Shown: in pieces, positions 3,286-3,350 of the stretch
Layout of the letters: every line of letters begins with the position of its first letter
Position numbering within the stretch: position 1 is the first letter of the stretch
Origin: a virus
Lineage: Duplodnaviria > Heunggongvirae > Uroviricota > Caudoviricetes
Direction: 5' to 3' (one strand)
IMG/VR virus record: IMGVR_UViG_2698536307_000012
Length of the DNA: 8,199 nucleotides
Notes under the pieces: model-generated
The model's input: the letters and a program-made list of their open reading frames with translations, nothing else
What the model was told of the DNA's origin: nothing
Database searches by the model: none
Position numbers and translations under genes: made by a program

Positions 3286-3350
3286 TATTTCTATTTCTAT
3301 TTCTATTTCTATTTCTATTTCTATTTCTATTTCTATTTGTTGTGATTTTT
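3286..3350. repeat. Perfect hexanucleotide microsatellite (TATTTC) x10 plus a partial TATTT copy
   Basis: Counted base by base: ten exact tandem TATTTC units from 3286 to 3345, then TATTT (3346-3350). It lies in the divergent intergenic region, 317-381 bp upstream of the 590-aa ORF start and 181-245 bp upstream of the HNH/ninG start. Confidence 0.95.

Follow-up and report, generated by a model that had tools for sequence, protein, structure and literature searches.

Does the long TATTTC repeat that lies between two genes of a lambdoid prophage control either of them, or is it a microsatellite that varies for reasons of its own? We addressed this question in a stretch of DNA of 8,199 nucleotides from a tailed virus (IMG/VR record IMGVR_UViG_2698536307_000012), which we call the window. 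An earlier note on this DNA had drawn attention to the repeat and had proposed that its copy number might act as a contingency element for the neighboring gene.

The TATTTC tract and its surroundings

The window is the nin and late-regulatory region of a lambdoid Escherichia coli prophage, and the complete E. coli genome that matches it best is 99.8% identical. It opens with the last part of a Dam methylase gene and with ninE, which are followed by an AT-rich insert (about 28 to 41% G+C). Within the insert, a gene for a 590-aa protein on the opposite strand is followed by the tract-bearing spacer and an HNH gene. Downstream of the insert are ninG, a Ser/Thr phosphatase gene, and the gene for the antiterminator Q. 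The features next to the tract are as follows.

1197 to 2969, minus strand: orphan 590-aa gene, AT-rich cargo, left of the tract and present in the window-type arrangement only
3272 to 3285, no strand: left anchor GTGGTCTGTTTTAA, 14 bp, common to both genomic arrangements
3286 to 3338, no strand: hexanucleotide microsatellite, assigned as the VNTR-9 (O157-9, Vhec4, TR1) array from its sequence, the primers, and the match to strain Sakai
3339 to 3355, no strand: right flank GTTGTGA-T8-AG, in which the T8 at 3346 to 3353 is a second length-variable run
3531 to 4097, plus strand: HNH endonuclease gene, 188 aa, with a Pfam HNH_3 match and a weak AP2 match

We found that the repeat is a perfect period-6 run of 53 bp, (TATTTC)8 plus TATTT, which amounts to 8.83 copies. 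It had been described as a perfect (TATTTC)10 tract at 3286 to 3350. The perfect tandem repetition and the start at 3286 hold, but the run ends at 3338, and bases 3339 to 3350 are GTTGTGA plus the start of the T8 run. In other loci, the right flank reads T5C, T6C, or T7C and then TTT, and some loci have extra degenerate units (TGTTTC, CATTTC) ahead of the T-run. The window lacks a C that another locus (L001) has at 3350. Together with a deletion at 6687, this gives the window two private 1-bp deletions. Both are in or beside homopolymer runs, which hints at some homopolymer error in the source sequence of the window.

The tract is the sole simple sequence repeat in the window that reaches 14 bp and 3 copies (units of 1 to 8 bp). 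In 200 composition-preserving block shuffles, periodic runs never exceeded 19 bp, and the longest run averaged 14.2 bp. The length of 53 bp is far beyond chance. Its placement between the 590-aa gene and the HNH start was also given correctly. The spacer between the start of the 590-aa gene (2969, minus strand) and the HNH ATG at 3531, a start taken from the annotation of near-identical records, is 561 bp long. The tract lies 317 bp from the first of these starts and 193 bp from the second.

Hundreds of complete E. coli genomes contain the TATTTC tract, as do sequenced Stx1 phages and 30-odd viral contigs. A search with the left flank and the tract against 185,579 species-representative genomes gave no matches. 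The Stx1-converting phages SH2026Stx1 and AU6Stx1 also carry the module, and so does the Stx1a prophage of O157:H7 strain F6321; in these elements, Q and stx1 lie downstream of it. The position of the tract was the same in all nin-region loci that we examined with the HNH gene or the 590-aa gene, two loci with diverged flanks among them. This constant position could reflect selection instead of microsatellite persistence. Canonical ninF/ninG sequence joins the AT-rich module at about 3514 to 3559. The tract is inside the module and not at its edge, which speaks against the suggestion that it marks the insertion of a moron.

The 590-aa protein belongs to PHROG 9230, a family of unknown function. 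We found no sequence match for it in Pfam, NCBIfam, PADLOC, or PDB and no relative among the species-representative genomes. Homologues occur in Escherichia albertii (71 to 93% identity), in many Salmonella enterica lineages (about 48 to 50%), and in Providencia alcalifaciens (about 50%), and all of them are named hypothetical. The mean pLDDT of an AlphaFold2 model based on an alignment of 16 sequences was 41.5, which is too low to warrant a fold search, and a hydropathy scan found no strong transmembrane segment. Within 900 bp upstream of the homologues from E. albertii (71%), Salmonella (48%), and Providencia (50%), we found no tandem repeat. These three contexts argue that the tract is not part of the control region of the gene family. 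The HNH gene, for its part, accompanies the tract always, in both arrangements. The O157:H7 loci have an IS30 remnant in place of the 590-aa gene, and they retain a tract of varying length. From these comparisons, we assign the tract to the nin-region module, in which it always accompanies the HNH gene.

Correspondence with the O157 typing locus VNTR-9

VNTR-9 belongs to the PulseNet, Norwegian, and Japanese typing schemes, and public-health laboratories have used this tract for E. coli O157 fingerprinting since 2003. It was still typed in a 2023 Japanese study. The locus, also called Vhec4 and TR1, is a 6-bp repeat at Z3935/Z3936 of EDL933 (PMC3321953); the synonym O157-9 is also given in PMC3768571. 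Among 202 German O157 isolates, its repeat number ranged from 6 to 23, with 15 alleles and a diversity index of 0.90, and null alleles made up 31.7% (PMC3321953). The forward primer is printed for VNTR-9 in PMC3321953 (Table A1) and in PMC8461963. We found its site in the window with 0 mismatches (0 expected by chance), overlapping the ribosome-binding site and start codon of the HNH gene.

3520 to 3546, minus strand: site of the published VNTR-9 forward primer GCGCTGGTTTAGCCATCGCCTTCTTCC

The reverse primer, GTGTCAGGTGAGCTACAGCCCGCTTACGCTC, has no site in the window at up to 3 mismatches. O157:H7 Sakai (prophage Sp17) has sites for both published primers, and they give a 526-bp in silico amplicon. 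The only tandem repeat in that amplicon is a TATTTC array of 9.83 copies. A different repeat in the Sakai amplicon would have spoken against the identity of the tract with the typing locus, and the amplicon has none. Sakai and the window agree in the 14-bp left anchor, the right flank, and the HNH gene; identity between them restarts at 3272 and extends through the HNH gene. We concluded from these sequence matches that the tract is the established MLVA locus VNTR-9 (O157-9, Vhec4, TR1) and is thus already known. By the same matches, the window is orthologous to VNTR-9 and has its defining features except the reverse-primer site. Since that site is missing, the window would score as a VNTR-9 null allele in the strict sense of the assay. 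Text searches of the literature for the letters of the repeat unit with MLVA or VNTR returned only chance matches. The earlier note did not recognize the tract as a well-known typing locus.

The reverse primer is located in IS30 sequence, which is why the window-type arrangement has no site for it. We found matches to this primer at 6,114 places in 3,236 of 5,426 genomes. In one O157:H7 genome, a copy of the primer sequence belonged to an unrelated IS30 remnant. A partial IS30 stops exactly 14 bp left of the tract in Sakai, where the 590-aa gene is absent. The complementary junction is present in strain SMN197SH3, which has the 590-aa gene and window sequence to about 3270 to 3273 and then the other IS30 inverted repeat. 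Unrelated tail genes lie beyond that IS30 end. The GT at 3272 to 3273 is found at both IS30 junctions and is the insertion site in the O157:H7-type derivative. IS30 makes a 2-bp target duplication, which the shared GT fits.

The complementary junctions suggest that the O157:H7 reference locus is a derivative of the window-type arrangement, and the window is presumably the uninterrupted, ancestral one. IS30 would have inserted 14 bp left of the tract, and the side with the 590-aa gene would later have been lost to give the Sakai Sp17 locus. The two arrangements are about equally common among complete E. coli genomes (245 window-type versus 281 IS30-type records). In our sample of 38 loci, 34 were of the window type, and an in silico amplicon was obtained only from the four IS30-type loci. 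Spread sampling with an IS30-containing query was dominated by IS30 matches and gave five informative rows.

These results bear on the assay. We infer that the window-type arrangement plausibly contributes to the reported null alleles (31.7%), and its lack of a reverse-primer site would be one likely cause of them. It is also a practical point that the target of the reverse primer is a multi-copy insertion sequence. PCR-based and in silico MLVA can miss or confuse paralogous repeat copies in other prophages, including Stx1 phages. The addition to what was known of VNTR-9 is modest: the window appears to show its uninterrupted ancestral context.

Copy-number variation and its proposed origin

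We read the array in the window, in annotated genome and phage records, and in 33 IMG/VR contigs retrieved by the left flank plus two repeat units. The number of perfect copies ranged from 3.83 to 22.83 in 38 complete loci, with 12 alleles. Three further direct reads gave 15.83 and 8.83 copies (O157-type) and 4.83 copies (window-type), in agreement with the copy numbers deduced from the lengths of BLAST intervals. Arrays always differed in length by a multiple of 6. Consistently with this, related O111 genomes with flanks that are 99.3% identical had tract intervals that differed only by multiples of 6 bp. Up to 5 copy-number alleles were found on identical 380-bp flanks. In the two diverged loci, the left flank is 84% and the right flank 91% identical to the window; the array is pure TATTTC in one of them and has only two variant units in the other. 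Copy number turns over faster than the flanks gain substitutions, and this is the behavior of a microsatellite that slips.

Published work on Vhec4 points the same way. Serial passage of individual strains yielded single-unit insertions at 4.3 × 10−5 to 4.6 × 10−5 per generation (PMC3777172). In an earlier study by Noller et al., as far as it is cited in PMC3777172, Vhec4 was among only three loci that mutated. Units of 6 to 7 bp predominate among the variable loci of E. coli O157 (PMC3777172). The earlier note had called the tract prone to slippage and had suggested a comparison of copy number across related loci. With several alleles on identical flanks and unit gains on passage, both the slippage and the length polymorphism are correct, and invariance of the tract is contradicted, yet this was already established knowledge.

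We favor the reading that the tract is a typing VNTR that varies by slippage. We put its probability at about 0.88, a figure that covers the identity of the locus and the slippage mechanism; our confidence that the tract is strictly neutral is somewhat lower. According to this model, a non-coding microsatellite in an AT-rich spacer would change by whole 6-bp units via slipped-strand mispairing in replication. Loops of 6 nucleotides largely escape MutS-dependent mismatch repair. Their poor recognition by MutS would explain why 6- to 7-bp units dominate among the variable O157 loci. On this view, the tract would perpetuate itself as a nearly neutral by-product of AT-rich DNA gained by horizontal transfer and would not be a regulatory device. 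In biological terms it would be minor, a textbook bacterial VNTR that has been exploited for O157 outbreak typing.

Search for a function and comparison with known systems

A strict scan of 2850 to 3600 found no sigma-70 consensus promoter. With relaxed scoring, none of the 14 best candidates overlapped the tract. The best promoter-like candidates on the minus strand are at 3099 to 3138 (−35 from 3138 or 3099), and the tract is at least 148 bp upstream of the nearest −35 hexamer among the minus-strand candidates. A weak candidate on the plus strand, TTGATA-19-TAAAAT, has a predicted start near 3046 and would place the tract in the HNH leader; all of these promoter assignments are pattern matches only. 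Two further features lie on either side of the tract.

3065 to 3121, minus strand: invariant 57-bp island, the same in the window and the two diverged loci, in a left flank that is otherwise about 84% identical
3387 to 3403, plus strand: weak terminator-like hairpin and then CTTTTCC, 49 bp downstream of the tract

The island contains or adjoins a −35 hexamer, TTGACG (from 3099), and a −10 hexamer, TATAGT, with a predicted start near 3102. We infer that the island is likely the control region of the 590-aa gene.

A scan of the whole window with Rfam at an E value of ≤1 found no family at the tract. RNA folding across the tract was no better than that of shuffles on both strands (z of about −0.1; −0.14 for the hairpin region), and the tract stays single-stranded in the predicted folds. 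With a period of 6 bp, successive T-tracts would face almost opposite sides of the helix, and no net bending of the DNA would be expected. Because the unit is 6 bp and the place intergenic, slippage cannot switch a reading frame. We rejected the small ORFs over the tract as genes; they are non-conserved, and we regard them as by-products of a stop-free 6-bp unit. None of the sequence-level expectations of a contingency locus that we could check was clearly borne out. No result obtained here shows that the tract regulates a gene.

Four other explanations for the tract have to be weighed, and we consider all four together improbable. The earlier note had proposed that copy number alters promoter geometry or the binding of nucleoid proteins such as H-NS and in this way tunes the 590-aa gene. 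The tract is hypermutable, both in the loci studied here and in published experiments (PMC3777172), and it lies in AT-rich DNA upstream of that gene. It is kept in 36 of 36 nin-region loci that have the 590-aa gene and a readable upstream region, including variants at 92% identity. Homologues of the gene are found in pathogens with type III secretion, and the one in E. albertii adjoins the gene for NleF. Such hosts and such a neighbor make it conceivable that this is a host-interaction gene, as accompanies contingency loci. However, the tract is 317 bp from the start codon, the nearest promoter-like hexamers belong to an invariant island of their own, 148 bp or more downstream of the tract, no consensus promoter overlaps the tract, and a 6-bp period would not be expected to bend the DNA. 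The tract persists and varies equally in O157:H7 without the 590-aa gene, and homologues at 48 to 71% identity have no upstream repeat. We know of no phenotype linked to VNTR-9 in about 20 years of its use in typing. These observations count against the proposed contingency role, which we regard as quite unlikely.

The tract could instead matter as RNA. It lies on the sense strand of the series ninE, HNH, ninG, and Q, and a G-free (UAUUUC)n leader might serve as a length-variable region for Rho loading or pausing ahead of HNH-ninG-Q. Transcription that reaches Q, and stx1 in Stx1 phages with the module, would then be modulated. About 2.8 kb of untranslated RNA precedes HNH on the plus strand, the tract is unpaired in the predicted folds with a UC dinucleotide every 6 nt, and the weak hairpin with its T-rich tail at 3387 to 3403 follows downstream. 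In phage SH2026Stx1 and strain F6321, the module is upstream of Q-stx1. The nin region of lambda holds terminators upstream of Q, a point that we counted in favor of this explanation. It is based on patterns only, however, and the C content of the tract is only 17%, whereas typical rut sites have a C content well above that. The long untranslated antisense stretch already exposes the transcript to Rho without the tract, and N-type antitermination would override the effect. We give this explanation a very slim chance. The chance is slimmer still that the tract codes for a repetitive (Ile-Ser)n or (Phe-Leu)n core in a small protein. Open frames of 45 aa, (IS)n, and 50 aa, (FL)n, do run across it in the window, and PGAP annotates the (IS)n frame when the array is long, with CDSs of 84 aa in strain 7_15_5C and 60 aa in F6321. 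The MLVA literature places the locus "inside ORF (Z3935/Z3936)," and a 6-bp unit never breaks the frame. An ORF across the repeat arises automatically, since the unit is free of stops and its length is a multiple of 3. Against a coding role, the C-termini are swapped between near-identical loci because of 1- to 2-bp indels in the adjacent T-run, and in Sakai, IS30 separates both frames from all start codons, yet the array is still maintained. The frames match no Pfam, NCBIfam, or PHROGs family, and the candidate starts have no convincing ribosome-binding site. Finally, the private 1-bp deletions beside homopolymers at 3350 and 6687 might suggest that the tract is an artifact of assembly or sequencing. 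The same tract is present in hundreds of genomes, in Stx1 phages, and in viral contigs, and it has been sized by PCR in many laboratories, which leaves an artifact next to no chance.

Slippage at a typing locus thus remains the reading that we prefer, and the neutrality of the tract can be considered separately. It is very unlikely that the tract is not neutral and that its length tunes transcription through a rightward leader or the leftward strand. In the rightward case, the (UAUUUC)n leader could affect Rho loading or pausing and, in Stx1 phages with the module, thereby influence when late genes and stx1 are expressed. In the leftward case, the 590-aa gene could have the tract as a distal upstream element, or the tract could act as an (AAU-AGA)n run, which fits the ARN motif bound by the distal face of Hfq. 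If a functional reading were true, the copy number of the typing locus would inform on the expression phenotype of prophage genes. In that event, the EHEC typing marker in widest use would double as a phenotypic rheostat.

Known repeat systems differ in how closely they resemble the tract. Classical phase-variable loci of Haemophilus, Neisseria, and Campylobacter are likewise hypermutable by slipped-strand mispairing. In contrast to the tract, they have intragenic repeats of 1 to 5 or 7 bp and switch by frameshift, which a 6-bp intergenic tract cannot do. Repeats that grade expression are known upstream of hmw1A and hmw2A in Haemophilus influenzae (7-bp ATCTTTC) and upstream of nadA in Neisseria meningitidis (TAAA). 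Like these, the tract is a hypermutable, T-rich, short-unit repeat in non-coding DNA upstream of a gene, and the hmw unit resembles TATTTC. The hmw1A, hmw2A, and nadA repeats lie between or beside mapped promoters and the start codon, and their copy number changes expression. In contrast, the tract is far from promoter-like sites, survives without its supposed target gene, and has no known effect on expression.

The hexanucleotide VNTRs O157-10 (TR2) and O157-25 (TR4) share 6-bp units, whole-unit slippage, and a role as neutral typing markers with the tract; they are distinct loci with distinct units. Among O157 hexanucleotide VNTRs, the mutation rate climbs with array length, and O157-10 mutates about ten times faster than Vhec4 in the same experiments (PMC3777172). 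VNTR-9 of O157:H7 itself differs from the window in that, in the reference, an IS30 remnant with the reverse-primer site abuts the tract; the window has the original sequence and the 590-aa gene instead, and the standard primer pair would yield no product from it. In the TATTTC array, the left anchor, the right flank, the HNH gene, the forward-primer site, and a polymorphic copy number that covers the same range, the two loci are alike.

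IS30 junctions and the VNTR-9 array

To the left of the array, (TATTTC)8+TATTT at 3286-3338 (MLVA locus VNTR-9), we found an IS30 insertion site that is empty in the window. We identified two complementary IS30 junctions in related loci, one in prophage Sp17 of O157:H7 Sakai and the other in strain SMN197SH3. The junction coordinates are as follows.

Coordinates of the IS30 junctions
Window, 3272-3273: IS30 insertion site, empty, 14 bp left of the array
L005 (the Sakai Sp17 locus), 2980/2981: IS30 junction
L007 (the SMN197SH3 locus), about 3121-3124: the complementary IS30 junction

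The Sakai and SMN197SH3 junctions look like the outcome of one IS30 insertion and later rearrangements. In the standard VNTR-9 assay, the reverse primer, GTGTCAGGTGAGCTACAGCCCGCTTACGCTC, falls within IS30 and is not in the window. We searched 5,426 complete E. coli genomes and found 6,114 places that match this primer, distributed over 3,236 of them. Loci of the window type (590-aa gene, array, and HNH gene) have the repeat without the reverse-primer site and therefore would score as null alleles despite carrying the repeat.

We found the variant units CATTTC and TGTTTC near the 3' end of the array in several related loci (L034, L031, L036, L039, L010, L021, and L065). Since the 5' end stays pure and the variant units lie near the 3' end, these arrays show polarity of turnover. 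The internal variant units could serve as lineage markers finer than array length alone. Just after the array, a T8 run at 3346-3353 is a second length-variable site, and its counterparts in other loci read T5C, T6C, or T7C and then TTT. The T8 version without the C was found in the window alone among 39 loci; because it is unique, it could represent either true variation or a sequencing error in the homopolymer.

The 590-aa cargo gene and its putative control region

The 590-aa cargo protein (1197-2969, minus strand) had no match in Pfam, NCBIfam, PADLOC, or PDB and represents an orphan family. The homologues that we found were confined to E. coli prophages, E. albertii, many Salmonella enterica lineages, and Providencia alcalifaciens. 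In E. albertii, one homologue adjoins the gene for the caspase-inhibitor effector NleF. The S. enterica homologues lie in a chromosomal islet with cdd on one side and a DUF218 gene on the other, and the neighbor in P. alcalifaciens encodes a DUF4116 protein. Taken together, the host range and neighboring genes suggest that the protein is an uncharacterized candidate type III secretion effector. Its N terminus is rich in Ser and Thr, which account for 19 of the first 60 residues. The low-confidence AF2 model is all helical.

A stretch of 57 bp (3065-3121) is identical in the window and two loci in which the surrounding spacer is only ~84% identical. Promoter-like hexamers on the minus strand coincide with this invariant stretch, which may serve as a promoter or operator for the 590-aa gene.

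Other features and the start of the HNH gene

We also noted two features elsewhere in the window.

7206-7411, plus strand: full-length, subthreshold match to the Rfam sRNA family STnc100, downstream of Q
121-645, minus strand: 174-aa ORF in antisense orientation to the genes annotated as Dam methylase and ninE

The STnc100 match scored 37.5 bits (E = 1.8e-5), below the gathering score of 47, and may mark a prophage-encoded small RNA. Along its entire length, the 174-aa ORF matched PHROG 37455 (E = 6e-120), a family that may have been built from spurious antisense gene calls. At 6687, the window has an A6 run versus A7 in the closest record. The resulting frameshift divides the gene orthologous to Sakai ECs_3500 ("membrane protein," 247 aa) between two ORFs (6194-6712 and 6709-6951). 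The window has either a pseudogene here or an error in the homopolymer.

An imperfect 20-bp tandem duplication (3549-3589) follows the start of the HNH gene. The HNH gene product begins with MAKPARRRC, the N terminus of lambda NinG, and the sequence at 3514-3559 agrees with the junction between ninF and ninG in many lambdoid and P22-like phages. Because of these two matches, insertion of the HNH gene seems to have occurred at the very beginning of ninG, with the HNH gene taking over the ninG start.
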